Of a stretch of DNA of 64,000 nucleotides, positions 5,483-35,251 are shown one piece after another. The position numbers were made by a program, and so were the translations under genes. Source of the DNA: Patescibacteria group bacterium (GTDB lineage: Bacteria > Patescibacteriota > Dojkabacteria > JAHIVN01); the NCBI GenBank assembly GCA_043816305.1, contig JBDRHZ010000043.1:42322-106321 (forward strand), read 5' to 3'. A model generated the notes under the pieces. The model was not told where the DNA came from. It searched no databases and was given only the letters and a program-made list of their open reading frames with translations. Each line of letters begins with the position of its first letter. Position 1 is the stretch's first letter.

Positions 5483-6505
5483 CTACAGAGTATCTTTTAT
5501 CCATTTATAAAGTTTATACCCTAAACCTCTAAACACCTTCACATACTGCGGAAGCATATCTACATGCTCACCACCGAAACCGCTTTTGAAGTAGGAAATT
5601 CCAAATAGGGAATGGTCCTGATCACCCTTTGGTGCTGCTCCCCACTGATCGTAAAAGTTCCTACCGGCTTTTGCCTGCTGCTTAATGATTTCCCACTTTA
5701 GTAAGTATGAGGCCTCTACATCTCGGCCCTTCTTTGTCGCACCTCCATAAAGTTCATACACCTGGTAATCGTTCAAAACCAATAAATATGCCGCAACTAC
5801 TTCTCCTTTATACTCTGCCACGTAAATCTTGATGAGGTCCTCTTTTGACATCTCATCCCAGATTCTCTGAAAATAATCTTTCGGATGAGTCTTGAAGCTT
5901 GTGCTGCCTTTTACTGATTCTATTACTTTGTAGAATTTGTCAACCGCTTCATAGCCTTCGACTTCTTTTGCCACAACTCCCTCTCTCACAGCTTTCCGGA
6001 TATTTCTCCTCCACTTTGATCGAACACTTTGAAATAATTCTTCCTCAGTCCTATCGATTCGGATAACGTCAGTCCAGTTTGGTTGGATAGTTTCTCCGGC
6101 TACCTTCCATCCATCAGTTTCTAATACCATTTTGAAGCTTTCGTTCCAGTTTTCAAATCTCAAGTCATCCTCAGGATCTATCAGTACAAAAGCAATATGC
6201 CTTTCATTTAAGCACTTTGTCAATTCTTGGATAACGTAATCTAAGTACTTGATGTCTCTGACAGAAACTCCCCGGGGAATGTAGGCAAAGCTCGAAAGAC
6301 CAATAAATCGAGTAAACTTTTGAAGAGGGAACTTTCTATAATGAATTGATAATACTGCTACCAAATTTCCCTCCTTGAAAATACCAACCCTTTCTACTCT
6401 CCAGTTGTAAGACTTTACCTCTCCCCAGTTCCAGGATTGAAGCGGCGAACCGCCGAAATGCTGCCAAGCTTGTTTATACTGTTCCTCGTTTAATTTTTTT
6501 ACCAT
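5483..6505 (-). CDS. FemAB-family peptidoglycan bridge aminoacyltransferase (FemX-like)
   Basis: PLQSWNWGEVK, YELYGGATKKG, YDQWGAAP and FKSGFGGE match the FemAB/FemX pattern. Length 340 aa. Confidence 0.85.
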   Translation of the reverse strand: MVKKLNEEQYKQAWQHFGGSPLQSWNWGEVKSYNWRVERVGIFKEGNLVAVLSIHYRKFPLQKFTRFIGLSSFAYIPRGVSVRDIKYLDYVIQELTKCLNERHIAFVLIDPEDDLRFENWNESFKMVLETDGWKVAGETIQPNWTDVIRIDRTEEELFQSVRSKWRRNIRKAVREGVVAKEVEGYEAVDKFYKVIESVKGSTSFKTHPKDYFQRIWDEMSKEDLIKIYVAEYKGEVVAAYLLVLNDYQVYELYGGATKKGRDVEASYLLKWEIIKQQAKAGRNFYDQWGAAPKGDQDHSLFGISYFKSGFGGEHVDMLPQYVKVFRGLGYKLYKWIKDTL

Positions 6506-6556
6506 ACGATTGTTTTACTATTGTAAGACGATTATGTAACTATTGTCGAACAATCG

Positions 6557-7549
6557 CTAGCCTCCGGACCTCTGTCTCCACTCATTCACCTTATTCATCA
6601 CTCTATACACAACATAGCCAATCCTATCGAACACATAGGTATACTGAGGAGGAAAATCAATTACTTCACCGCCAAATCCCTCCTTGAACTGAACAAGACC
6701 AGGGTATTTAAACTCCGCTCCCCACTCATCATAGTACTTTTTACCAAGTTTCTTTGCATGCCGGATAGTAAACCATTTCATCAGATAGTTTGCCAATAAC
6801 TCATTTCCCTTTTGGCTGCAGCCGCCATACATCTCAAATGCCGAATTCTCATTGTACAAAACCATATATGACCCCACCACTTCACTTCCAGCTTCTGCGA
6901 TAAATAAATCAACATTCTCTCCAAACAAATCCCAAATCTTTTTATAGTACGAGCCTTCATGCAGAACATATCCTTTTATCTTACCTATATCCTCGATAAT
7001 GCGAACAAAAGAGCTAATATCAAAACTCGTTCCAATGCGTATTTTCACTCCATTCTTCTCAGCTTTGCGGATGTATTGTCTATGTTTCGACCTCATTTCA
7101 GACAGCAATTCTTCCTCTCTTTTTGATAAATCTAGTACCACCGTCCTATTCGGCTGGATTTGTAGGCCAGTAGCTTTAAACCCAATTCTTTCGTATAACT
7201 TTGGGCTTTGAGTTTTAAGTTTTGAATTGTAGCTAATGTTAGGATCGATCATCAAGTGAGACAGGTGTAATTCGTGTTTTGTAATTTGGCCAATCACATT
7301 CTCAAGATACTTCTCATCCTTTACAGCTATTCCTCTGGGAATGTAGCCAAACTTTTTTCCGTAAATTGGAATTTTTCTTGTAAGAATGGTAAGAATTGAT
7401 ACAACTTCATCTTCATCAAATACACCAAGGCGCACTGGTTGCCATTTCGGTTTCTTCAATTCTCCCCAAGCGCAGGACTGAAGCGGGTGGACATCGAGAA
7501 CCTTTTCTTGCTTTAAATATTCTTCTTTTGAGAGTTCTTTTATTGACAT
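6557..7549 (-). CDS. FemAB-family peptidoglycan bridge aminoacyltransferase (second tandem copy)
   Basis: HPLQSCAWGELK, FEMYGGCSQKG, YDEWGAE, FKEGFGGE. Paralog of 5483..6505. Confidence 0.85.
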   Translation of the reverse strand: MSIKELSKEEYLKQEKVLDVHPLQSCAWGELKKPKWQPVRLGVFDEDEVVSILTILTRKIPIYGKKFGYIPRGIAVKDEKYLENVIGQITKHELHLSHLMIDPNISYNSKLKTQSPKLYERIGFKATGLQIQPNRTVVLDLSKREEELLSEMRSKHRQYIRKAEKNGVKIRIGTSFDISSFVRIIEDIGKIKGYVLHEGSYYKKIWDLFGENVDLFIAEAGSEVVGSYMVLYNENSAFEMYGGCSQKGNELLANYLMKWFTIRHAKKLGKKYYDEWGAEFKYPGLVQFKEGFGGEVIDFPPQYTYVFDRIGYVVYRVMNKVNEWRQRSGG

Positions 7550-7789
7550 TGTTGTATGTTTTTATGGTTGTTAAGTTAACACTTCCCTGCAGCCATTTAA
7601 CCATAAAACAATATGGCCATTATTCTTCGATTATAATTTGTATAACGGAATATAGCAAAAATAGTAGCAGTAGATGTGTCAGTAGCAGGACAGCTACAAA
7701 ATATTATCTATAGCAAAACTAATTCCTATCTTGATTGACAAACGCTAAGCTAGTTTTATATAATCAAAGTTATTATTTAGTCTTAACAA

Positions 7790-8704
7790 ATGTCTGTAAA
7801 TTGTTCTATTGGAAAGAAAATCAAAAAAACAAGAGGAGATCTGGGATTATCTCAAAAAGAACTTGGAATACTTACAAACTATTCTGTCCCGACCCTCAGC
7901 CTTATCGAAAGCGGTAAGATAAATATATCAGTCGAATCATTATCAAACATAGCTATGGCGCTGAAGAAACCACTCTCTTATTTCCTCCAAAATGCTCAAG
8001 ATAAGAAGTATGAGGTTAGTACGAAACTTATTGCAATAGAGAATGAGCTTGATGAAATTAAAAGCTCTCTAAATCAGGAGGTTATAAGAGCTCGAAAATC
8101 AAACTTCAATCTTGCCGTAAGCGGAGGAGTGGGAACTGGTGACAATGGAAGATTTCATCTAATAAATGAACTAGCAAAACACTTCCAAGCGAAAGCTTTT
8201 CCAGAAAACCCAGCTGCAAATCCATACATAGAAAAATTCTACAAAGAAAAAGGCAAGTGGGGATTCCACAGCCAGCTATTCTTCTTTAAGGAAAATTTCA
8301 AGCAGCAGGCTGAGATTAAGAAGAAGCTTGGACCTGTAATTCAAGGTAGAAGTTTGTACGAAAACTTTAGAGTGTTTGCTACTGTTTGGTTCGAAATGGG
8401 CTATTTAAACAGAGTAGATTTTCAGCTGCTCGGAGATCTTTATGATCAAGCAATTCAAATCATCAGAAAACCTGATCTGATAGTCTATCTAGAAAGCGAT
8501 CCGAAGAAAATCTCAAAAACAATTCCTAGATTCAAAGAAAGAAAGATCAATTTGAACCACATTAGAAGAATTCACAGTAAATATAAAGCTTGGACGAAGA
8601 CATTTGATATAGCGCCTATTCTAAGCTTTGATATTCATAAACTCGATCTTTTTGAAAAGAAAAGCATCAAACTGATAGCAGAGGAAATTCAAAACGCCCT
8701 CTAA
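7790..8704 (+). CDS. XRE-type HTH fused to a deoxynucleoside-kinase-like domain with degenerate catalytic motifs
   Basis: The N-terminus (IGKKIKKTRGDLGLSQKELGILTNYSVPTLSLIESGK) is an XRE HTH. The C-terminal part aligns by eye to the dNK/dCK family: FPENPAANPYIEKFYKEKGKWGFHSQLFF, GRSLYENFRVFA, PDLIVYLESDPKKISKTI. The P-loop reads SGGVGTGDNG (nt 8120-8149) instead of GxxGxGKS/T, and the ERS motif reads GRS. Confidence 0.75.
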   Translation: MSVNCSIGKKIKKTRGDLGLSQKELGILTNYSVPTLSLIESGKINISVESLSNIAMALKKPLSYFLQNAQDKKYEVSTKLIAIENELDEIKSSLNQEVIRARKSNFNLAVSGGVGTGDNGRFHLINELAKHFQAKAFPENPAANPYIEKFYKEKGKWGFHSQLFFFKENFKQQAEIKKKLGPVIQGRSLYENFRVFATVWFEMGYLNRVDFQLLGDLYDQAIQIIRKPDLIVYLESDPKKISKTIPRFKERKINLNHIRRIHSKYKAWTKTFDIAPILSFDIHKLDLFEKKSIKLIAEEIQNAL

Positions 8705-8730
8705 TTATTGTATATAATGATATAGTTTGA

Positions 8731-8744
8731 TATACTATAGTATA
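8731..8744. promoter_or_regulatory. perfect 14-bp palindrome TATACTATAGTATA immediately upstream of the HTH-Nudix gene
   Basis: Read directly from the sequence. It lies 4 nt before ATG 8748, inside an AT-rich promoter-like stretch (TATATAAT at about 8711-8718). Candidate autoregulatory operator. Confidence 0.35.
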
Positions 8745-8747
8745 GTT

Positions 8748-9356
8748 ATGAGACAACTTATTTCAATCAACAAAGCGGCGGAATTATTAAACGTACACCC
8801 AAACACTCTAAAGAGATGGGATAAATCCGGCGAGCTAAATGCTATACGATTCGGAATTCGCGGGGATAGAAAATATAGAGAGGAAGACCTCCAGAAATTT
8901 ATAATCTCTTCAAGAAGAAAGAAGAAGATTTACCCAAATGTAGGCCCTCTCGTTGCTGTTGCCTGTATGGTACTAAAAGGTGATAAAATTCTTCTTGGTA
9001 AAAGAACCGCTGAAATGTGCAGGGGGGAGTATTGTCTCGTCGGAGGATCGCTTGCCTTTGGAGAAACATTTGAAGAAACTGCAAAGAACGAAGCGATACT
9101 CAAAGCTAACATAAAGATATCCGAACCGAGAATAATATGTGTCACTAACAATAGAAAAAATATACCTAAAATAAATAGACAAAACATCACAATAGGAACC
9201 ATAGCGAAGTATAAATCAGGAAAGGTCAGAGATAAACAGCCAGATAGGATAATCAATTGGAAATGGTACTACTTGGATAATCTGCCAACACCAATCATCG
9301 AAGCAGATACGAAGATAATTGAATGTTATAAGAAGGGGAGGTTTTATATAGACTAG
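8748..9356 (+). CDS. MerR/excisionase-type HTH fused to a Nudix-fold domain with degenerate Nudix box
   Basis: The N-terminus (ISINKAAELLNVHPNTLKRWDKSGEL) is an excisionase/MerR-like HTH. The Nudix box position reads GSLAFGETFEETAKNEAILKANI. The G-x5-E spacing is kept, but REUXEE is replaced by NEAILK, so most catalytic Glu residues are missing. Start taken at ATG 8748. Confidence 0.7.
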   Translation: MRQLISINKAAELLNVHPNTLKRWDKSGELNAIRFGIRGDRKYREEDLQKFIISSRRKKKIYPNVGPLVAVACMVLKGDKILLGKRTAEMCRGEYCLVGGSLAFGETFEETAKNEAILKANIKISEPRIICVTNNRKNIPKINRQNITIGTIAKYKSGKVRDKQPDRIINWKWYYLDNLPTPIIEADTKIIECYKKGRFYID

Positions 9357-9411: not shown

Positions 9412-9472
9412 GGGCATAAAAAAGCAGTTTCGTCGCCAAACGTCCCAGCTGTTTTTACGCCCATTTAATTTT
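9412..9472 (+). terminator. candidate intrinsic terminator after the HTH-Nudix gene
   Basis: Imperfect long hairpin GGGCATAAAAAAGCAG...CAGCTGTTTTTACGCCC followed by the T-rich ATTTAATTTT. Confidence 0.4.
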
Positions 9473-9488
9473 AGCAAATAATCTGTAC

Positions 9489-9508
9489 AAATGCGATTTA
9501 TCGCATTT
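9489..9508. promoter_or_regulatory. 9-bp-arm palindrome AAATGCGAT-TT-ATCGCATTT upstream of the zinc-ribbon mini-ORF
   Basis: Perfect dyad read from the sequence, 12 nt upstream of ATG 9520. Confidence 0.3.
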
Positions 9509-9519
9509 ACATAATAACT

Positions 9520-9672
9520 ATGAAGAAATCGCAAAACCCGAAAACACCCCTCTGCCCAAGATGTTTTAATGTAATTAAAGAGGTAGATGACAAATGCCCA
9601 AGGTGTGGATTTCCACTTTTGTCAGACAACCACATAGTATATGTTGAAGACTTAACACCTAAGAACCCCTAG
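9520..9672 (+). CDS. 50-aa zinc-ribbon mini-protein (below ORF-track cutoff)
   Basis: Hand translation: MKKSQNPKTPLCPRCFNVIKEVDDKCPRCGFPLLSDNHIVYVEDLTPKNP. It has two CPxC knuckles spaced 10 aa apart. Its 3' end overlaps the convergent 9659..11206 ORF by 14 nt. Confidence 0.4.
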   Translation: MKKSQNPKTPLCPRCFNVIKEVDDKCPRCGFPLLSDNHIVYVEDLTPKNP

Positions 9673-11206
9673 TTGCCAAATCAATTGCTTTTAGTGAGGC
9701 ATTTATACCCATCAAAAACAATCCTGCATCATAAGACTCTTCATGACAAGCCATCATCAAAATATGTCTCAACCTTGCCATACTTCGCCATACGTAGTGA
9801 ACATCACTTCTTCCTAATAGTAGAGGGAAAGATTGATGGGATATTTCAAATGCTTCATAAAAGGCCTGTTCTATATTTATAAGCAAAGGTAGAAAAAAGT
9901 CTTCGTCCATTCTACACTCTACCTGATTTCTATCTTCGCGTGGCCTTACATATAAATTCTTATGGGGAAACCTCCATCTAGGAGAACCCTCTTCTACTTT
10001 TATTGAACGTGTTATCAGATCTTTGTAATCTGCAAGCACTTCACGAAATAAGCTTACCGCTTGGGGATAGACCCTCAGGCTAGCAATTAGTATTTCCTGA
10101 GGCAAACCAAGCAGATAAAAAACCGCTCTATTTCTTGCGTCTTTTAATATTCCCATCCTTTCTACCTCTGCAACAAATTCGTGCAGTGGGAGCACCTTCC
10201 CAGCGATATCACGATCCCAACCAAGTTCTCCCTTCATTCCTTTTTGAAAAGTCTTCATCCTACTAGGTATATCTTCTTCCTTCAACATCTCCATAATACT
10301 ACTAACACCATACATCAAACCAGCTTCTGCTAACTTTTGGTATAAGGTTGCAAGAAGCCCAAGACCTGGTCCATTTAGATACATTTGTCTTCTATCCAGA
10401 TCGTTTGATCGCATCAACAAGGCTTGGATAAGTTCTGGATGAAGAATTATCCCTACTGTCCGACTAGATATAGCTGTGTTTTGCAGTAAACCCAGTGCAG
10501 CTTGGGGTAAGAAAATCTGACTGTGATCTCCTGCCTCATATCTAAATCTGAAGGTATTATAGAGATAACCTAAAACAGCCATGGGAACTCCGCCATCACA
10601 GGCAATCCTTATTTCATTTCCCACACCCCAATGCTTGCGGGTAAAAACAAAAAGTTTCGTATCGATCAACTCTCTAAGTAACTGTGCAGATAGAATTTTT
10701 TCTAGATAATCAATATTTCCTAGCAGGGCCTCGTTCTTATTAGTTCTGGGCATAAAGGTAAACCTAGCCCTGCTAGACCAAAATACAAAACTATCCTCGC
10801 CCTCAGGAACAGAGAAAACCCACTGAGCAGATGCTATAAGTGTTGATTTCCCTGATCCAGGCGTACCGCATATAACATCACGCATAAAAGTATCAAGTCC
10901 TTCTGCTTCCGGAACACATAATCTCAACAACGTCCTCCAAGCATCTTGCAATTGTATAGGCAAACCTCTTACACCGCCTCGTGAACAAACAGCTCTATCA
11001 TACAAGGTAGTTATAACCTTAATAGCGGTTGGCCCCAGATTATCTAGAAGGAGCTGCTCCTCTGCAAGGCTTTCAGCCGGCCTCCGAGGTTCGGTTGACA
11101 AAAATTCCCATAAATCCCCATCCTGTCCTTCAACAGAAATACGGCCGGCACCCCCAGGATGTGGAGGTTTTGCATACCTAGCTCCTCCCGCTCTCTCTGT
11201 ACTCAT
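9659..11206 (-). CDS. P-loop NTPase of unknown family with long helical C-terminal region (atypical-composition ORFan)
   Basis: Walker A GTPGSGKST (aa 114-122; nt 10844-10867 encode GTPGSGKS). A possible Walker B lies at IRIACDGG. The N-terminus is Gly/Pro/Arg-rich. My rough hand count is 18 Lys versus 42 Arg, against about 48 Lys and 25 Arg in DnaA. The start ATG overlaps the upstream stop (TAATG at 11204-11208). Confidence 0.7.
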   Translation of the reverse strand: MSTERAGGARYAKPPHPGGAGRISVEGQDGDLWEFLSTEPRRPAESLAEEQLLLDNLGPTAIKVITTLYDRAVCSRGGVRGLPIQLQDAWRTLLRLCVPEAEGLDTFMRDVICGTPGSGKSTLIASAQWVFSVPEGEDSFVFWSSRARFTFMPRTNKNEALLGNIDYLEKILSAQLLRELIDTKLFVFTRKHWGVGNEIRIACDGGVPMAVLGYLYNTFRFRYEAGDHSQIFLPQAALGLLQNTAISSRTVGIILHPELIQALLMRSNDLDRRQMYLNGPGLGLLATLYQKLAEAGLMYGVSSIMEMLKEEDIPSRMKTFQKGMKGELGWDRDIAGKVLPLHEFVAEVERMGILKDARNRAVFYLLGLPQEILIASLRVYPQAVSLFREVLADYKDLITRSIKVEEGSPRWRFPHKNLYVRPREDRNQVECRMDEDFFLPLLINIEQAFYEAFEISHQSFPLLLGRSDVHYVWRSMARLRHILMMACHEESYDAGLFLMGINASLKAIDLATRGS

Positions 11207-11826
11207 TATGCCTTCTGTAATATATAACCCTTTCCTTTCACATTCTTCAACCTGTAGTTAGAAGGCAGTTTCTTTTTCAACCGTTCTATCAGTTTATATG
11301 TTCCCCAAAGTGAAAATTCTCCACGTTGCACAAGATCTGAAATCTCATACAGAGATACCAGATCTTCCTCCCTCTCCTTGAAGTACTCAAAAACTTGGTT
11401 TAACAAAGGCGATGATTCGAGACATTTCCTTGATAGACTCCCAAGATACGCCTGTTCCAAAAGAGGACTAATAGTGTTTCCTTTCGAATCCAATAATCCT
11501 AACAATTGTAGTTTCGATTTTGGGAAATAGGCGAATAAATCAACAAGCTCTTCAAGTACCATTTCTACGGGAGGATATTCCAACACCTCTTTTTTATCCA
11601 AAGACTTGTATGTATCAACAAAGCTACAAAGCCTCTTGATCAGCCCGGGAATACCCCCACTAAGTCTATATATTTCTTCTTCAAACTCACTTGGAATGTT
11701 CCAGCCATTTGTGAGCCGTCTTTGGTCGATAGCATGCTTTGTCTTTCCGAAATCAAAAGGTTTCCTGATTTTTACACATGAGACCGGCCTGACTGATTTG
11801 GGAAAATATCTCTTCGGATGTATCAA
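11206..11826 (-). CDS. winged-helix (OmpR/PhoB-type C-terminal) DNA-binding protein, upstream partner of the NTPase
   Basis: The C-terminus (WGTYKLIERLKKKLPSNYRLKNVKGKGYILQ) matches the Trans_reg_C pattern (xxxIxRLRKKL...I.TVRGxGYxL). An LSGGIPGLIKRL motif resembles the GxP helix of STAND/AAA+ lids. TTG start at 11826, with no ATG in frame upstream. Confidence 0.55.
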   Translation of the reverse strand: MIHPKRYFPKSVRPVSCVKIRKPFDFGKTKHAIDQRRLTNGWNIPSEFEEEIYRLSGGIPGLIKRLCSFVDTYKSLDKKEVLEYPPVEMVLEELVDLFAYFPKSKLQLLGLLDSKGNTISPLLEQAYLGSLSRKCLESSPLLNQVFEYFKEREEDLVSLYEISDLVQRGEFSLWGTYKLIERLKKKLPSNYRLKNVKGKGYILQKA

Positions 11827-12016
11827 AAAATCATACTCCTTTGTGCCCCCACTGCTTCAGTTTGATAAACGAAGAGACTCTAACATGCCCCAAGAGTGCC
11901 AATACAGATATGAAAGCGAAATGCGGTTAATCTACAGTGAAGATTTCGATGAGTACAGATTAAGGAATTAGATATAGTATCTACCAGCAAATTTAGCTAA
12001 ATTGATCGAAGTTGCC

Positions 12017-12541
12017 ATGGAAGAAATTTTGACAGATGAACAAAGAAGAGAAGTTATTCAAACTAGATGTTTTTCACTAATAACCCAGCGTTTCGATTTA
12101 GAATGCAATTGTTTACTTGAAGGAGAATATGCAGCATTCATTGTTCGTTCAAATATAGCAGGCGGAACAGTCTTTGGTCCAGGTAACCAGGTTCGGCCCA
12201 TACATGTAGTATTTACAGACTACTTGCAACACTTTTGTAGCACTCAGGCGATATATCTAAATTTAGATGTTTTGAAGGGCACTATCCTTGAAGCTCTAGA
12301 GGGGATCGAAGCACATCGCATAGAAACCTTCGCTCTATCTTATCCTGACGTAAGAGGCATTCTTCATTACGAGGATTTGCAAAATATCCAGCCAGAAGGA
12401 ATAGATTACGTTCAAACAAACTTTGCTGCTTTAAGCAAACTGTATCAAGTACTTACAGCATCTATTTATGACTTAATAAGAGAGCTGGCAGAGAAACAAG
12501 AATTTAAACATCTTGCAGTTCTTGCCAATAAAGAAGTTTAA
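12017..12541 (+). CDS. hypothetical protein (atypical-composition ORFan), divergent from the wHTH-NTPase operon
   Basis: ORF track 12002..12541. I prefer ATG 12017 (MEEILTDEQRREV). No recognisable motif. Confidence 0.55.
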   Translation: MEEILTDEQRREVIQTRCFSLITQRFDLECNCLLEGEYAAFIVRSNIAGGTVFGPGNQVRPIHVVFTDYLQHFCSTQAIYLNLDVLKGTILEALEGIEAHRIETFALSYPDVRGILHYEDLQNIQPEGIDYVQTNFAALSKLYQVLTASIYDLIRELAEKQEFKHLAVLANKEV

Positions 12542-12582: not shown

Positions 12583-13076
12583 TCAGTTTCTCTTAGAATT
12601 GTACTTGTTCTCCTCAACATAACTTACTAAAAGTTTGGCATATTTTTCCCTATCTTTAGGATTCGAAAGCTCTCTCTTTCCATATTGCACATAAAGACCA
12701 TCGCCAGAATATCTTGGAAACACATGCACGTGAAAATGCCATAGGTCCTGATCACCGGCCGGCTCATTATGCTGCCACAAAGATACTCCATCACAATTGT
12801 AAGTTTTTCGAATAGCTATACTTATGTACTTCACAAATTCGGCAATTCTAATATTCACTTTTCTGGGAAGGTCATAAATATTCTCGTAGTGATTTCGAGA
12901 ACTTACCAGAACATGGCCGGGATTATTCGGCCACCAATGGGAGGCTATATGGGAGAATATAAACTCATCTATGTAAATAATGTCTGTGCCTGTTTGGTAT
13001 ATGGAAATTCTCCTTCAACTCCAATGGCAACAGCGCAAAGCGGGCACTTGTAGTCCTTTGGTTCGTGATTGAACAT
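12583..13076 (-). pseudogene. HIT-family hydrolase interrupted by a single-nucleotide frameshift
   Basis: From ATG (rc 13074-13076) the frame reads MFNHEPKDYKCPLCAVAIGVEGEFPYTKQAQTLFT and stops at rc 12969-12971. The +2 frame continues DIIYIDEFIFSHIASHWWPNNPGHVLVSSRNHYENIYDLPRKVNIRIAEF...HFHVHVFPR, which contains the HIT motif HxHxHxx. The total of 494 nt is one short of an intact 165-codon gene. The break lies near 12981-12992. Confidence 0.6.
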
Positions 13077-13083
13077 GTTTTGT

Positions 13084-13659
13084 CTACTTGAAACTCAATC
13101 CGTCTGCACTTCTAAATTCTACTTTTACCCCATCAATTTCAACTTCAAGAATGCAGCAGTCATCTTTTTTATCCAGCTCTTTCCCCAAGAATTCCTTGCA
13201 GAATACCTCAAGAACTTTTCCATGCGTTACAGCAAGAATTCTTTCCGCATCAAAATCTTGAATCTTCTCTATCATAATCTTTAATCGTCTAATCAGATCG
13301 TCGACACTCTCACTTCCAGGCACCCATTCTCCATTTTCATACGCCTCGTGCAGCTCAGGATAATTCTTTTCGATATCTTCTTTTTTTTCTCCGCACATCA
13401 AGCCATAAGTATTTCGCTCCTTGAGATAAAGCCATTTCTCTGCTTTCAATCCTACGCCCTGACCAAGAATCTCGGCTGTCTCAAATGCCCGAAGAAGGGG
13501 GGAGGAAAGAATTTTATCTATATTGAATTTCTTGACTTTATCGACAGAATCTTCTGCCTGCTGTCTGCCTTTTTCAGAAAGCAGCAAGTCACCCCATCCT
13601 CCATACCTATTCTCAACATCATCCATTCCCTCACCATGGCGCATAAAGAATACTTTCAT
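13084..13659 (-). CDS. histidine phosphatase family protein (phosphoglycerate-mutase-like)
   Basis: VFFMRHGEG...GGWGD and a later AVTHG give the RHG...H catalytic pattern. Its stop lies 7 nt before the HIT start. Confidence 0.8.
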   Translation of the reverse strand: MKVFFMRHGEGMDDVENRYGGWGDLLLSEKGRQQAEDSVDKVKKFNIDKILSSPLLRAFETAEILGQGVGLKAEKWLYLKERNTYGLMCGEKKEDIEKNYPELHEAYENGEWVPGSESVDDLIRRLKIMIEKIQDFDAERILAVTHGKVLEVFCKEFLGKELDKKDDCCILEVEIDGVKVEFRSADGLSFK

Positions 13660-13798
13660 AATTTCAAATTAAAAGTTTAAGTTAATTAATTCTACATCAA
13701 GAGACGACTATCGATCAATACCGATCGTCAGGACATAATACTTGTTAATCCAGCTCGAAATTGTATATAATCTAAACATTGTCAATAATTACTGTACG

Positions 13799-14374
13799 AT
13801 GAACTTTGATCTGGTATTAAAACAATTGGGTTTTAAACTAAGAGAACGTCAGATTATTGCTTATCTGTACTCAAAGGGAAATTGTAAAGCAAGTAAAATA
13901 GCTCTTGAGCTATGCATTCCGAAAAGCACTATTCTTTTTGTTTTGTATAAACTTGAAAAGAAGGGGTTTGTCACAAAGATTAAAAAAGCAAAGTCTTATA
14001 TATTTACACCTGCTGATCCGACTGCCCTAATCAATCATTTCGACAACACGATTCAAGAAGCAGAAGCAAAGAAAGAAAAAATTCTGCCACTCATTCCAGA
14101 GATTAGGCGACTGAAAGATCATAAGGCTGACGCCAAAATTGCATATTACAGTACAGATTCATCTATAAAAGAACTGCGCCAGTCATTGCTGGAGCAGGTC
14201 GACAATAAAGACACAAAGATTCTTTATGATAAAGAATCTGTAAAAATTTACGCCAACGATCAGTACTTGTTTCTGCTCTCAGATGATCTAGCAGTCAGAT
14301 TTGAGAATAGAGGGACATTAGTTAAATTTATCAATGCCTTTAAATACGTAAATGCCTACGAAATCAAAAAGTGA
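13799..14374 (+). CDS. TrmB-like winged-helix transcriptional regulator
   Basis: LRERQIIAYLYSKGNCKASKIALELCIPKSTILFVLYKLEKKGFVTK. Start taken at ATG 13799. Confidence 0.6.
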   Translation: MNFDLVLKQLGFKLRERQIIAYLYSKGNCKASKIALELCIPKSTILFVLYKLEKKGFVTKIKKAKSYIFTPADPTALINHFDNTIQEAEAKKEKILPLIPEIRRLKDHKADAKIAYYSTDSSIKELRQSLLEQVDNKDTKILYDKESVKIYANDQYLFLLSDDLAVRFENRGTLVKFINAFKYVNAYEIKK

Positions 14375-15077
14375 GGCCACAAAGACTAAAGTCCTAAATA
14401 CGCGTATTTCATCGTCAGGCGAAACCCTCCGTAGCAGAATTGCGAAGGAGGGTAAAATCATATACTTCTTCCGGCACGGCGAAGAGATGAATGATGTCGC
14501 AGGGAAATTCGGCGGATGGTCTGATCCGGCACTTTCCCACAAGGGCATCAAATTAGCCAAGAAGACAGCACTATATCTGAAACCGAAAAACTTTAATATA
14601 ATTCTAACTTCCCCGCTGGAAAGAGCAAGCCAAAGTGCCGATATCATTGGAAAGATCATAGATGTTGATGTAAAGGAACTTGTCTACCTAAAAGAAAGAA
14701 ATACCTACGGCATTCTTGGTGGCATTTCGAAGAAAACAGCCAAAGAAGATTATCCTGAATTGCTGCGTTCTTATAATGCACAGGAATTCATACCCGGAGC
14801 AGAAAGATACGATGACTTCAAGAATAGAGTAGAGACACTTATTCGGAAATTGCTTGAAACTGAGTATCAAAGAATTCTATGTGTTACACATGGATATCTT
14901 ATCACTACACTTATAGAAGAATTTCTCGGTTTAAATAGAGAAAGTATCGAAGACGGCTGTTTACTTGGTTTGCGTTCTGTGGGTCGAAAGTTTGAAATAC
15001 TTGAAACAAAGAACATGACATACACCGAAGGGCAGAAAACGTATGATTCAGAAAGGTATCGGAAATTCAAATCCTAA
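14352..15077 (+). CDS. histidine phosphatase family protein (second copy)
   Basis: IIYFFRHGEEMNDVAGKFGGWSD and CVTHG. Paralog of 13084..13659. Confidence 0.75.
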   Translation: MPTKSKSEATKTKVLNTRISSSGETLRSRIAKEGKIIYFFRHGEEMNDVAGKFGGWSDPALSHKGIKLAKKTALYLKPKNFNIILTSPLERASQSADIIGKIIDVDVKELVYLKERNTYGILGGISKKTAKEDYPELLRSYNAQEFIPGAERYDDFKNRVETLIRKLLETEYQRILCVTHGYLITTLIEEFLGLNRESIEDGCLLGLRSVGRKFEILETKNMTYTEGQKTYDSERYRKFKS

Positions 15078-16273: not shown

Positions 16274-17401
16274 TCAATCCAATCTCATCGGCATCACAAT
16301 GTGTAAAAAGTCTTTGTCTTCAACGTCTTTGAATACTCCAGGAGCCGTGACTCCGTTTGTTTCAAAGTAGACATCTTCCCCTTCTATAGCATTTAACATG
16401 TCCAGCAAAAATTTGATATTGTATCCTGTCACAAGGTCTTCTCCCTTAACATCCAAGATTTCAATACTACTCTCATTTTCACCGACATCTGCTACCTGAG
16501 CAGATAGCCTTAATTTGCCTTTGGCAGCTAAAATCTCAAAAACGGCTTTATTTCCAACAGCTGAACGGGCAAATATACTTACAACTTTTAGTGATCTTCC
16601 TAGCATTTCCTTATCCACTCTGAAGCTGTGCTTCGTTTCCTTCGGAAGAATTTGTTGATATTCAGGAAATTCTCCCTCTATCAATCTTGTGGAAATCTCT
16701 ACATCCTGCACCTTGAAAATCATCTGGTTTTTGTCTTTGAGGAGATATCCCTCTAAGGTTTCATCGTCTTCTCCTAAGTCATGCGTAATTCTTGCTAGTT
16801 CACTCAAGGCTCTTGCAGGAATTATATGACTGAATTCAGAAGTACCTTTTCTATCAATATCCAGTACCTTCTTTGATAACCTAAATCCGTCAACTCCAAC
16901 TATAGTAAGCTTTTTTGAGGTAGCTTCGAAAAGAACGCCTGTTAAAACCGGACGGGAATCGTCATGCGCAGCAGCAAATATTACCTTATCGAGAGACTTA
17001 GCAAACTGAAGTGCCTTTACTTTAAAAGCAGGAGTTTCTTTTGCATGGGGCAGAGGAGGAAATTCTTCTGCATCAACAACATTGAATTCCGCACTGCTTT
17101 GTTTATTCTTGACAACTAACACTTTATCTCGAAATTCCAGATTTAGAGGTCCAGATGAAAGCGAATTTACAAATTCAGCCAGCGTCCTTGCATTTGCTGT
17201 TGTCTTTCCCTTTGCTTTTACATCGGCTCCAACAAGTGTGCTTATCCCGAGTTCAAGATCTGTTGTTGAAAGCTTCAATTGATTGTCAACTATCTCTATC
17301 AAGACATTTGAAAGAACTGGAATCGAAGGATTTGAACTTATCGTTTTTGAAACATAGTTGAGAGCTTTTGCAAAGCTTTCTTGAGTTAAGGTTGCTTTCA
17401 T
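16274..17401 (-). CDS. dnaN: DNA polymerase III beta sliding clamp
   Basis: 375 aa, located directly downstream of dnaA. Typical N-terminus MKATLTQESFAKALNYVSKTISSNPSIPVLSNVLIE and C-terminus LHIVMPMRL. Confidence 0.95.
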   Translation of the reverse strand: MKATLTQESFAKALNYVSKTISSNPSIPVLSNVLIEIVDNQLKLSTTDLELGISTLVGADVKAKGKTTANARTLAEFVNSLSSGPLNLEFRDKVLVVKNKQSSAEFNVVDAEEFPPLPHAKETPAFKVKALQFAKSLDKVIFAAAHDDSRPVLTGVLFEATSKKLTIVGVDGFRLSKKVLDIDRKGTSEFSHIIPARALSELARITHDLGEDDETLEGYLLKDKNQMIFKVQDVEISTRLIEGEFPEYQQILPKETKHSFRVDKEMLGRSLKVVSIFARSAVGNKAVFEILAAKGKLRLSAQVADVGENESSIEILDVKGEDLVTGYNIKFLLDMLNAIEGEDVYFETNGVTAPGVFKDVEDKDFLHIVMPMRLD

Positions 17402-17979
17402 ATTAATATGTATTATATTAAATAATTTAGAAGTAGTAATAGTATAGGCAGTGGATTTGTTTATAAGTTTAACTTGTATCTATTTCAAGGCGTTTTTCTG
17501 AACTTATCCGTGTGGATTGTTTTTCTCTACAGTTTTAAGTTATAAAAAGAGTATCTAATTTTTACTACTTGATGTCAAGCAATAATACGATGTGTTTAAG
17601 TAAGGGGTTTGTGTGGAAGAATATGTTGATGGTATTTGGATAACTTTTGACAAAAAGTGTTATGATTTTTGTGGTAATGACCCTTTATACTCAATTAATA
17701 TTATATTTGCTGGGATATTCTCTTCTAATATAAAATCCACACTCAAGGAGTTGTTCACAAAGCTCGCACAGTTATACACAAAGAATTGAATCTCAAAAAA
17801 GATTGATAAATCGGTATCTTTAGAAAGGTTATTCACATATTGACATGATGCTCATGGCGGATGGGGTTAGAAAGCAGGACATGGCGTTACAAGTCTTTCT
17901 GAGATATTACTTCGGTATCTATATGAAGGAGTGCTTGCAGGATTTAACTGAAGTAGATAATTCTAGGTTTAACTGAGGC
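17402..17979. promoter_or_regulatory. candidate oriC (dnaA-dnaN intergenic) with DnaA-box cluster and AT-rich unwinding region
   Basis: One-mismatch DnaA boxes: TTTGGATAA (17635-17643, rc orientation), TTATACACA (17772-17780), TTATTCACA (17829-17837). Weaker boxes at 17733-17741 and 17751-17759. Very AT-rich stretch at 17401-17450. Confidence 0.6.
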
Positions 17980-19362
17980 TTAAATAGTTGGCTGCTGCTG
18001 GATTTCGTTTATCAGGTTGTCGATCTGTTCTTTGAATGTCAAGTTTGTCTGAATCATGCTTTGAACTTTGTCGATAGCATGGATTGCAGTTGTATGATCT
18101 TTCCTTTCAAGGATCTCTGAAACTTCCTGGAGCTTGTATCCGAATTCATCTCGGAGAATATACATGCATATCTGGCGAGCAAAAGCTATTTCCTTCGTTC
18201 TTCGAGGCCCTTTTATTTCTTTGGAAGAAACTCCAAACTCCTTTGCCACTTTCTTTATGATGGTGGAAGTTTTTACAGCTTTTCTTTTTGAATTGGGGTC
18301 TTTGCCAAGTATCTTTGCTATCTCAGCTTGTGTGAGTTCGTCCTCTTTTTTCATGGAATTATAGAGATTGACTTTTTGGAGTGCGCCTTCGAGTTCTCTA
18401 ATATTCTCTTTTATTATTTCGGCAATGAAACGTAGAAAGGGTTCTGGAAGATTTATACCGAACTCCTTTTGCTTTTGTTCGAGTATTGCTATACGTTCTT
18501 CATATCTTGGCTTTGATATATCTGCTACCATGCCTCCTTGAAATCTGGAGATCAATCTGTCTTCGATATTGGGGATTTCTTCGGGTGTTCTATCAGATGT
18601 GATGACAATTTGTTTGGAAGCCTGAAAGAGAACATTGAAAGTGTTGAAAAAGGCGCTCTGAGTTTCTTTTCTGTTGGAGAGCATTTGAATGTCATCTATG
18701 ATAAGCACATCCAATTTCCTATATTTATCTCTGAACTTATCCATAGTATTTGAACGTATGCAGGCAACCATATCATTTAGGAAGTTTTCGGTTGTACTAT
18801 ACAGAACTTTTTTTGTAGTATCACGATCGATGATCTCTCTTCCGATAGCCTGGGCTAGATGGGTCTTGCCTATACCTGTTGTGCCGTATAGGAATAGAGG
18901 ATTGTAGCTCTTTCCCGGGTTTTCAGAAACGGAAATTGCAGCTGCATGAGCAAGCCTGTTAGAATCTCCAACGACATAATTTGCAAAAGTGTATCGCTCA
19001 TTCAAACTGGAAGACCGAATATGTTGATATGAAGCTTCATCTATTCCGTCTTTTACTTGCAGAATAGGAGCAGTGTCGTCCGCCTCTGTTTTTTTGGATG
19101 TATCTTTCACAAGGTACTTGTCGTATTTGAATTCCGGATTGAGATCTTTTCCATACACAAATGAAATAGTTTTTTGAATGAGATGCTTGTGTTTTTGGTT
19201 AAGCCAGTCAGCAGTATAACTGTTTTTAACACCAATTAGAGCCTTCCTGCCTTCGATATCTATGAGTCTTGTGTCTCTAAACCATGTCTTGAATTGAGCG
19301 GGAGAATCAAGCTTTATCTCAATCTGTGCAAGAGTTTTTTTCCAGATATCGGTTTTATCCAT
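17980..19362 (-). CDS. dnaA: chromosomal replication initiator DnaA
   Basis: AAA+ Walker A GTTGIGKTHL, Walker B LIIDDIQ, sensor and box VII residues, and the C-terminal DnaA signature (RQICMYILRDEFGYKLQEVSEILERKDHTTAIHAIDK). Confidence 0.97.
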   Translation of the reverse strand: MDKTDIWKKTLAQIEIKLDSPAQFKTWFRDTRLIDIEGRKALIGVKNSYTADWLNQKHKHLIQKTISFVYGKDLNPEFKYDKYLVKDTSKKTEADDTAPILQVKDGIDEASYQHIRSSSLNERYTFANYVVGDSNRLAHAAAISVSENPGKSYNPLFLYGTTGIGKTHLAQAIGREIIDRDTTKKVLYSTTENFLNDMVACIRSNTMDKFRDKYRKLDVLIIDDIQMLSNRKETQSAFFNTFNVLFQASKQIVITSDRTPEEIPNIEDRLISRFQGGMVADISKPRYEERIAILEQKQKEFGINLPEPFLRFIAEIIKENIRELEGALQKVNLYNSMKKEDELTQAEIAKILGKDPNSKRKAVKTSTIIKKVAKEFGVSSKEIKGPRRTKEIAFARQICMYILRDEFGYKLQEVSEILERKDHTTAIHAIDKVQSMIQTNLTFKEQIDNLINEIQQQPTI

Positions 19363-34738: not shown

Positions 34739-35251
34739 ATGAAATTCATCAAGGAAATCTTTGAAAAGGACGTTTTTGGTAAAGAAATTTTAAGAAATGA
34801 TATGAAGCTAACGATCAGAAGATCTGTCAGGGCTGTTGCGTTCAATAAAGAGCAGAAGTTCCCCTTGGTATTTTTAAGTGAGAATGACTATCATATTATT
34901 CCTGGTGGAAAAATTGATGAAGGAGAGACTCTGGAGTCTGCACTGAGAAGAGAATTTATGGAAGAGGTTGGATTTGACTTGAAAATCACTGAAGAAGTAG
35001 GAGTGATTGTCATGCATGAGTATTATGAGGAGACTCTTCATATAAATTACTGTTACTTAGGAAAGATTCTTGGAGATGAAAAGGAGCGTGTTTATACTAC
35101 AGAGGAAAGTGATCAGGTACCAGTTGTAAAGTGGTTCAGATTGGAAGATGCGATAAAGGTTCTTAAGGCGGATAAGCCAAGAAATGATTTAGGGAAATTT
35201 AACCGATTCCGGGATCTGGCTTTTCTGGAGGAGGCGAGAAGTAGTGAATAG
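34739..35251 (+). CDS. Nudix hydrolase (canonical Nudix box)
   Basis: GGKIDEGETLESALRREFMEEVGF fits GX5EX7REUXEEXGU. Confidence 0.85.
   Translation: MKFIKEIFEKDVFGKEILRNDMKLTIRRSVRAVAFNKEQKFPLVFLSENDYHIIPGGKIDEGETLESALRREFMEEVGFDLKITEEVGVIVMHEYYEETLHINYCYLGKILGDEKERVYTTEESDQVPVVKWFRLEDAIKVLKADKPRNDLGKFNRFRDLAFLEEARSSE

Follow-up and report, generated by a model that had tools for sequence, protein, structure and literature searches.

Two adjacent candidate transcription regulators with degenerate kinase and Nudix domains in a Dojkabacteria genome

Two neighbouring genes of a tiny, uncultured member of the Dojkabacteria (Patescibacteria) encode proteins in which a DNA-binding domain is fused to a fold known from nucleotide metabolism, raising the question of whether these proteins are enzymes, regulators or both. 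The genes lie in a stretch of 64,000 nucleotides (the window; assembly GCA_043816305.1, contig JBDRHZ010000043.1, positions 42,322 to 106,321 of the forward strand), within which all coordinates are given. Gene A (7790–8704) encodes an XRE-type helix-turn-helix (HTH) domain fused to a deoxynucleoside kinase (dNK) fold, and gene B (8748–9356) encodes an HTH_17 domain fused to a Nudix fold. It is rather probable that both are transcription regulators in which catalytically dead enzymes serve as effector domains, likely as small-molecule sensors. An earlier reading of the DNA letters alone (the sequence-only reading) had proposed these HTH–enzyme-fold fusions, and both open reading frames (ORFs) and their Pfam domains are as it described them. 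Its observation is confirmed, and its interpretation of the genes as ligand-sensing regulators is partly supported.

A helix-turn-helix protein with a degenerate deoxynucleoside kinase fold

Gene A belongs, by fold and by sequence, to the deoxynucleoside kinase family as well as to the XRE (Cro/C1) HTH family. The Pfam dNK profile (PF01712) covers residues 110–301 (E 7.5e-34, 117.7 bits against a cut-off of 27). The AlphaFold2 (AF2) model is confident, with a predicted local distance difference test score (pLDDT) of 89.6. Its best PDB folds by Foldseek are deoxyadenosine, deoxyguanosine and deoxycytidine kinases (dAK, dGK and dCK), with target-normalised template modelling (TM) scores of 0.72–0.83. 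The features of the gene are as follows.

7735–7764, + strand: sigma-70-type consensus promoter of gene A, TTGACA-18-TATAAT (12/12 hexamer matches); TTGAC-N-TATAAT also lies 5' of the gene A orthologues in L001 and L004
7790–8704, + strand: gene A, XRE-HTH/pseudo-deoxynucleoside-kinase fusion, 304 aa (Pfam HTH_3 and dNK, AF2, Foldseek)
7820–7984, + strand: XRE-type HTH domain, residues 11–65 (PF01381 HTH_3, E 3.5e-9, 37 bits against a cut-off of 23)
8003–8101, + strand: long linker helix joining the HTH to the dNK fold, residues 72–104, 33 residues (DSSP on the AF2 model, pLDDT 58–81)
8120–8158, + strand: degenerate P-loop SGGVGTGDNGRFH, residues 111–123 (alignment with 111 standalone dNKs)
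8345–8353, + strand: G186-R187-S188 replacing D/E-R-S (alignment with 111 standalone dNKs)
8507–8539, + strand: shortened LID segment, residues 240–250 (alignment; 3-column gap)

The kinase motifs were compared with those of 111 standalone dNKs and six other fused proteins, and columns at least 85% conserved in the standalone enzymes were tabulated. The P-loop (S111-GGVGTGDNGRFH-123) reads SGGVGTG-[DNG]-RFH where standalone dNKs have AGNIGVG-KST. Both HMMER and MAFFT place a three-residue DNG insert here, after which Lys is replaced by Arg, Ser by Phe and Thr by His. Across the standalone enzymes these ten positions are 92–100% conserved (K 99%, S 95%, T 92%). The Asp of the DRS motif, present in 100% of standalone dNKs, is Gly in all three members of the clade that includes gene A, with Arg187 retained. 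In the LID segment, R244 is replaced by Thr and one invariant Arg is deleted, with R247 and E250 kept; R169 and R209 are further losses. Missing from gene A are the Walker-A motif GxxxxGK[ST], the acidic residue of (D/E)RS and the Arg-rich LID that mark an active kinase, and no intact kinase motif displaced elsewhere in the sequence was found by regular expressions or by alignment. The substitutions that the sequence-only reading had pointed out in the P-loop and in the ERS motif (read as GRS) are borne out by this alignment to PF01712 and the standalone enzymes, in which K, S, T and the Asp are all lost.

The other side of the active site is kept. Gene A retains E139, Y151, W157, Q162, R187, E191, F196, R247 and E250, and in the HMMER alignment E139, Y151, W157, Q162, R187, F196 and E250 correspond to human dCK E53, Y86, W58, Q97, R128, F137 and E197. 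In dCK and dNK structures, these residues hold the nucleoside acceptor. The equivalents of dCK E53, Y86, Q97, R128, F137 and E197 are thus all present, and the acceptor residues kept by gene A are invariant in its degenerate clade except for E250. Judged by the aligned residues, gene A has lost the phosphate-donor machinery and retained a nucleoside-acceptor pocket, and the label 'deoxynucleoside kinase' in public records probably misstates its function.

Conservation within the clade (P0001, P0002 and P0003; 44–71% identity) is spread in the same uneven way. Invariant columns make up 38/61 of the acceptor block (residues 137–197) and 33/59 of the HTH, 9/29 of the LID and 3/17 of the P-loop. 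In the P0003 orthologue the P-loop glycines have gone too (GSNIRMRDGYRYP), and with so few invariant P-loop columns, the donor site is drifting while the acceptor pocket is held. Neither gene of the pair is decaying; both are under purifying selection, with 0.10–0.37 non-synonymous differences per site against 0.73–0.93 synonymous ones. For gene A, compared with its counterpart in locus L001, the non-synonymous value (pN) is 0.17 and the synonymous value (pS) is 0.85; pN and pS are given rather than dN/dS since synonymous sites are saturated.

The fusion is rare. The full XRE-dNK architecture turned up in about eight clusters at 50% identity when 1.84 billion representatives were scanned exhaustively with HMMER, and a word-indexed search of 5.8 billion proteins yielded seven. 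A profile search of genome contigs returned relatives only in a Candidatus Dojkabacteria metagenome-assembled genome (MAG), and the closest relative of gene A comes from such a MAG. Three of the fused proteins (P0199, P0053 and P0049) have intact GNIGxGK[ST], DRS and RIKxRGRxYE motifs. In P0197, P0198, P0048 and P0050-52 the kinase motifs are partly lost, and in the clade of gene A all donor-side motifs are lost. The existence of fused relatives with intact and intermediate motifs shows that fusion preceded catalytic decay. With intact, intermediate and degenerate members, the family therefore offers a natural test of the idea that an enzyme gains a DNA-binding domain and then loses catalysis, a route that for the regulator BzdR has only been reconstructed synthetically.

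BzdR and BoxR of Azoarcus sp. CIB share the layout of gene A, with an N-terminal XRE HTH, a linker and a C-terminal non-catalytic effector domain of the P-loop nucleoside monophosphate (NMP) kinase fold, and in BzdR the loss of kinase activity is reported to be essential for the regulatory role (PMC3602430). The BzdR-type model PRK08154 (NF006015) matches the HTH and linker of gene A (residues 6–100) with a score of 37.8 against a cut-off of 204, which leaves gene A outside that family. The effector domain of BzdR is shikimate-kinase-like and its ligand is benzoyl-CoA, whereas that of gene A is a deoxynucleoside kinase (PF01712) and its ligand is presumably a nucleoside or nucleotide. The family of gene A also differs from BzdR in being limited to a few metagenomic Patescibacteria-like sequences, some with intact kinase motifs. 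Another non-catalytic use of the dNK family is NDUFA10, an accessory subunit of mitochondrial complex I, which the dNK profile matches and which has no DNA-binding domain. A literature search returned no description of an XRE-deoxynucleoside-kinase fusion.

A degenerate Nudix fold behind a direct-repeat array

Gene B begins 43 bp downstream of gene A. Its features, and those of the gap between the genes, are as follows.

8707–8747, + strand: putative gene B operator, four 10-bp-phased direct repeats, GTATATA (8710), ATATAGT (8720), ATATACT (8730) and GTATAGT (8740)
8731–8744, no strand: 14-bp perfect palindrome TATACTATAGTATA, corresponding to units 3 and 4 of the array
8748–9356, + strand: gene B, HTH_17 (excisionase/BldC-type)/pseudo-Nudix fusion, 202 aa (Pfam HTH_17, MerR_1 and NUDIX; AF2; Foldseek)
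8760–8903, + strand: winged HTH_17 domain, residues 5–52 (PF12728, E 1.5e-9, 38.4 bits against a cut-off of 27)
9045–9113, + strand: degenerate Nudix box GSLAFGETFEETAKNEAILKANI, residues 100–122 (R to N, EE to LK, G to N)

The C-terminal part of gene B has a Nudix fold (PF00293, residues 68–190, 28.6 bits against a cut-off of 21.1), and the solved structures closest to it are those of Arabidopsis NUDX1 (E 4e-18), a Rickettsia MutT and NUDT15. The AF2 model is again confident (pLDDT 90.5), and NUDX1, NUDT15 and MutT are also its Foldseek matches in the PDB. For both proteins, structure prediction therefore agrees with the folds that had been read from the letters. The box runs G100-SLAFG-E106-TFEETAK-N114-E-A-I-L118-K119-A-N121 and aligns at the same place as the box of AtNUDX1. 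Relative to the active signature GX5EX7REUXEEXGU, the Arg, both Glu residues of the EE pair and the Gly are replaced.

The loss is shared by the whole fused group. HTH-Nudix fusions form nine clusters at 90% identity among 5.8 billion proteins, and RExxEE is found in 0/9 of the fused proteins (gene B and eight relatives) against 35/35 standalone relatives (34 with R, one with K). In the fused proteins the Arg becomes Asn, Ser or Asp and the first Glu of the EE pair is variable; the second is Lys in eight of the nine, and the next Gly is usually Asn. No fused HTH_17-Nudix member with an intact box was found among the nine, and regular expressions and alignment detected no displaced intact Nudix motif elsewhere in gene B. 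The box that the sequence-only reading described, with G-x5-E kept and NEAILK in place of the catalytic residues, stands, as does its claim that the motif sets of both proteins are disabled. The alignments show that the NUDX1/MutT-type fold of gene B has lost its metal-binding RExxEE residues, and across the members aligned the degeneracy of both motif sets is truly a property of the lineage or family, not a one-off.

Elsewhere in the window (34739–35251, + strand) there is a gene for a stand-alone Nudix hydrolase whose box, GKIDEGETLESALRREFMEEVGF, fits GX5EX7REUXEEXGU perfectly; judged by this motif, it is an active-looking paralogue.

The HTH of gene B had been called excisionase/MerR-type, of which the first half is the better description. 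In classical MerR proteins, the N-terminal winged HTH runs on into a long coiled-coil helix for dimerisation and then into an effector region at the C-terminus, and the palindromic operator lies in a 19-20-bp promoter spacer. The MerR_1 profile matches gene B (E 1e-7) over the HTH part alone (residues 6–50), and in the AF2 model a 14-residue helix (45–58) leads straight into the Nudix fold, with no coiled coil. With a promoter spacer of 17 bp and direct repeats as its putative operator as well, gene B falls outside the classical MerR proteins. The HTH instead resembles that of the BldC structures 6ama/6amk (E 4e-4). It scores 28.1 against a cut-off of 77 with NF033787 HTH_BldC (E 1.4e-6), which places it outside BldC proper, and 28.1 against 28.8 with TIGR01764.

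The gap between the genes holds a TTGTAT-17-TATACT promoter, followed by the ATG 11 nt on. Read in a 10-bp register, the 41 nt before this ATG are ATTGTATATA / ATGATATAGT / TTGATATACT / ATAGTATAGT / T-ATG. The repeat unit is GTATA[C/G]T, units 2 and 3 start with A, and the array ends 1 nt short of the start codon. It scores 24/28; the best of 40 first-order Markov shuffles reaches 21, and the rest of the window at most 20. Arrays of three to four units precede gene B orthologues in eight lineages (the window and L001, L005, L006, L007, L009, L017 and L018):

L001: GTATAGT, ATATAAT, GTATACT, GTATAGT
L005: GTATACT, GTATACT, GTATAGT, GTATGGT, with a GTG at the alignment-consistent start directly after
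L006: three units; 36%-identical protein
L007: GTATAGA, GTACAGT, GTATACT, GTACAGT
L009: three good units
L017: GTATATA, GTATAGT, GTATACT, GTACAGT
L018: three units; 45%-identical protein

Four units ending 1 nt before the start are found in the window, L001, L005, L007 and L017, and the array position varies in three loci. Since synonymous sites between these genomes are saturated, the persistence of the non-coding array indicates selection on it. The sequence-only reading had suggested the 14-bp palindrome as a marker of a regulon. The palindrome itself is exact, and exists because the GTATAC core is self-complementary; it is better read as two units of the four-unit array. It is single in the 64-kb window even with two mismatches, and each related locus has a single match to a relaxed two-unit regular expression, in every case 5' of the gene B orthologue, so the palindrome does not mark a regulon. 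A phased direct-repeat operator fits better than a MerR-style palindrome because the HTH resembles BldC, which binds direct repeats head-to-tail. This suggests that the array is an autoregulatory operator bound in the same manner, and the four phased repeats abutting the start codon make an immediately testable DNA target.

BldC of Streptomyces forms head-to-tail multimers on short direct repeats whose number varies (PMC5859096), a mode that three to four phased repeats upstream of gene B would match, given a winged HTH of similar type. BldC differs in being a 68-residue stand-alone domain without an effector module, and its repeat, AATTxxxx(C) with about 9-bp spacing, differs from the 10-bp-phased GTATA[C/G]T of gene B. 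The closest parallel for the effector side is NrtR, to which the sequence-only reading had aptly compared the pair. In NrtR, the GX5EX7REUXEEXGU signature of the Nudix fold is perturbed, the fold serves as a non-catalytic ADP-ribose sensor joined to a DNA-binding domain, and the protein autoregulates (PMC2330246, PMC6800001). Gene B likewise joins a perturbed-signature Nudix fold to a DNA-binding domain. The architectures differ: NrtR has an N-terminal Nudix domain and a C-terminal winged HTH (PMC2330246), whereas gene B has the HTH first and is not a member of that family. Further, the HTH of gene B is of the excisionase/BldC type (HTH_17), its Nudix domain is NUDX1/NUDT15/MutT-like rather than ADP-ribose pyrophosphatase-like, and its putative operator is a direct-repeat array rather than a palindrome. 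For gene A, domain layout makes BzdR a closer analogue than NrtR. A literature search on Nudix-type regulators, made without the term HTH_17, returned no description of an HTH_17-Nudix fusion. The use of inactivated enzymes as regulators is already known from NrtR and BzdR, and the present examples are uncommon but not without precedent.

Effector sensing and its alternatives

If both proteins are sensors, gene A would dimerise through its kinase fold, as dNK-family enzymes do, and would bind a (deoxy)nucleoside or nucleotide without phosphorylating it. Ligand binding would shift its two N-terminal XRE HTHs through the long linker helix and so alter operator binding. The protein would act from a palindromic site, and its likeliest targets would be its own consensus promoter or the promoter of the divergent femAB genes. 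Gene B would hold a nucleotide-like diphosphate ligand in the dead Nudix pocket without hydrolysing it, with the conserved Lys at the position of the lost metal-binding Glu contacting phosphate. Its excisionase/BldC-type winged HTH would bind the four GTATA[C/G]T repeats head-to-tail, possibly as two dimers on four units. The repeats extend over both promoter hexamers of gene B (-35 and -10) and over its transcription start, predicted at about 8743–8745, so the protein would repress its own, probably near-leaderless, transcript, and the ligand would tune occupancy of the array.

Several points weigh against this proposal. The mechanism of both regulators, from ligands to targets and DNA binding, is one that we infer throughout from sequence. 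In gene A, E250 is not shared with the other two members of the clade, Arg121 could in principle stand in for the Walker-A Lys, and the conserved 'pocket' residues may partly be a signal of fold stability. For gene A, an inverted-repeat search and alignment of three upstream regions gave no convincing conserved operator; the palindromes near the -10 are weak and not superimposable (ATATATGTTT-N9-AAACATATAT in L004, 8/11 in L001, and a poor one in the window). In the array of gene B, units 1 and 3 coincide with the -35 and -10 hexamers, and part of the array conservation may be promoter conservation, although promoter function leaves units 2 and 4 and the exact abutment on the start codon unexplained. 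There is no second array in the 64 kb or the related loci, so no regulon beyond the gene itself can be named. The adjacency of gene A to femAB persists at 44% identity (L004) and may be inherited synteny.

One alternative is that the dead folds are mere dimerisation or oligomerisation scaffolds and that both proteins are constitutive, ligand-independent DNA-binding regulators. The loss of donor-site and metal-site residues and of E250 conservation within the gene A clade fits this view. The dNK-family and NUDX1/NUDT15 enzymes are oligomers, and 8puu is titled a tetramer. Scaffolding hardly explains why conservation within the gene A clade is highest in the acceptor block, which includes E139, Y151, Q162, R187 and F196, and the Glu-to-Lys change in eight of the nine Nudix fusions suggests a retained phosphate contact. 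NrtR and BzdR, which follow the same design, do bind effectors (PMC2330246, PMC3602430). We consider the scaffold explanation unlikely, if worth keeping in view. It is very unlikely that the two are bifunctional enzyme-regulators, still catalytic through displaced or alternative residues in the manner of NadR or BirA. The fused relatives with fully intact kinase motifs (P0199, P0053 and P0049) make bifunctionality plausible for the wider XRE-dNK family, gene A has Arg121 at the Lys position, and E115 and E106 of the gene B box remain. Yet gene A loses K, S, T, D186, R244 and a LID Arg together, P0003 has no glycine-rich loop at all, and every fused Nudix member has replaced the Arg and two of the three box glutamates, with no intact motif displaced elsewhere in either sequence. 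A cyanobacterial NrtR homologue with a perturbed signature is barely detectably active (PMC2330246). NadR also combines an XRE-type HTH with enzyme domains of nucleotide metabolism (PMC2330246), but these are still active and come from other families than those of genes A and B.

The pair could also belong to a mobile element or defence system, together with the NTPase orphan genes that follow. Gene B would then be an excisionase-type recombination directionality factor, and gene A an XRE-type repressor serving a prophage or defence island. HTH_17 is indeed the excisionase family (TIGR01764 at 28.1 bits, just below 28.8; phrog_66), the XRE HTH of gene A matches defence-associated HTH models, and the adjacent orphans at 9659–12541 include a P-loop protein. 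Against this, there are no integrase or phage genes nearby, the orphan locus is missing from the related loci compared (L001-L013), and the chromosomal block that houses both genes, about 8 kb from dnaN-dnaA, is conserved across divergent genomes. Membership of a defence system or phage was rejected, since PADLOC and PHROGs match essentially only generic HTH, kinase or Nudix parts and 2.9 million viral contigs hold no relatives; we regard this explanation as highly improbable.

Taken as effector-sensing regulators, the two proteins allow a bolder proposal. The XRE-dNK family would be a natural series of a salvage kinase turning into a transcription factor, from fusions with intact motifs through partly decayed to fully dead ones, and the dead-kinase and dead-Nudix regulators would be dedicated sensors of (deoxy)nucleoside and nucleotide supply that couple it to cell-wall synthesis and growth. 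We rate this extended proposal as speculative and improbable as it stands. If it were true, Dojkabacteria would have regulators that tie nucleoside supply to cell-wall synthesis and growth from a block beside femAB and near dnaA/dnaN-oriC. Dojkabacteria-like episymbionts depend on scavenged nucleosides, and Patescibacteria have few regulators and rely on nucleoside salvage. Nucleotide sensors could be central for such bacteria.

The conserved block and its neighbours

The two genes were described by the sequence-only reading as a side-by-side pair tied to the downstream NTPase orphan locus. They are adjacent in the window and in a 71%-identical Dojkabacteria relative (L001-L003), and only there; elsewhere each occurs without the other. 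In L004, XRE-dNK lies between femAB and dnaN-dnaA, beside dnaN-dnaA, and the gene for the Nudix regulator is absent; in L010, XRE-dNK stands among other genes. The Nudix regulator occurs without XRE-dNK beside a PfkB kinase gene (L005), directly after a HIT gene (L007, L017) and after a DUF5667 gene (L009). Searches with tblastn define a block conserved across divergent genomes, with femAB (- strand), XRE-dNK or HIT, the Nudix regulator, a 50-aa zinc-ribbon gene and His_Phos_1 (- strand). In the window, dnaN (16274–17401, - strand) and dnaA (17980–19362, - strand) follow about 8 kb downstream of the pair. A replication origin is probable at about 17000–17900, because the cumulative GC-skew minimum falls between or just upstream of dnaN and dnaA. 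The conserved block near oriC carries the two regulators as independent modules and not as an obligate pair.

The orphan locus holds three ORFs, at 9659–11206 (515 aa, with a GTPGSGKST P-loop), 11206–11826 (206 aa) and 12002–12541 (179 aa). They match no Pfam, PADLOC or PHROG family and have no counterpart in loci L001-L013, and the GC content in 9659–12541 is slightly higher (up to 0.45, against about 0.37). The locus lies between the zinc-ribbon gene and His_Phos_1. As it is absent from L001-L013 and interrupts the conserved block, it is treated as a lineage-specific insertion unlinked to the pair, and the tie proposed in the sequence-only reading falls away.

Two tandem FemAB-family genes (5483–7549, - strand) are divergent from gene A and are kept in L001/L002, L004 and L007. 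An imperfect inverted repeat with 23-nt arms (7548–7612) lies beside the femAB start.

The 50-aa zinc-ribbon protein (CPRC...CPRC; 9520–9672, + strand) has only weak Pfam zinc-ribbon matches. It is found directly downstream of the regulators in the L001, L004, L005, L007, L009 and L014 lineages at 40–60% identity, and in the window an inverted repeat with 11-bp arms (9486–9511) precedes its start codon.

Between the regulator gene (the Nudix regulator, or XRE-dNK in L004) and the zinc-ribbon gene sits a strongly conserved, single-copy non-coding hairpin (9412–9476). It consists of GGGCATAAAAAAGC, a variable apex and GCTnTTTTTACGCCC, followed by a conserved tail, ATTTAATTTTAGCA. The same hairpin occurs in L001 (2415–2495), L004 (3125–3194), L005 (6814–6875), L007 (1728–1795), L017 (from 1564), L009 and L014. 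The A.C mismatch of the + strand is G.U on the - strand, which folds better (-19 to -25 kcal/mol), and on the - strand the tail reads TGCTAAAAT, which resembles an extended -10. The hairpin matches no Rfam family; its candidate functions are those of a conserved terminator, an attenuator or a small antisense RNA.

Further downstream, a HIT-family gene (HFHVHVFPR motif; 12583–13060, - strand) is seemingly frameshifted, with its N-terminal part (MFNHEPKDYKCPLCAV...) in another frame, which points to a pseudogene or else to an error in the assembly. In L007 and L017 an intact HIT gene lies directly 5' of the Nudix regulator. At 13084–15077, two His_Phos_1 phosphatase genes flank a gene for a TrmB/MarR-type regulator (13742–14374), and His_Phos_1 is also found downstream of the Nudix regulator in L007/L008, at 64% identity.

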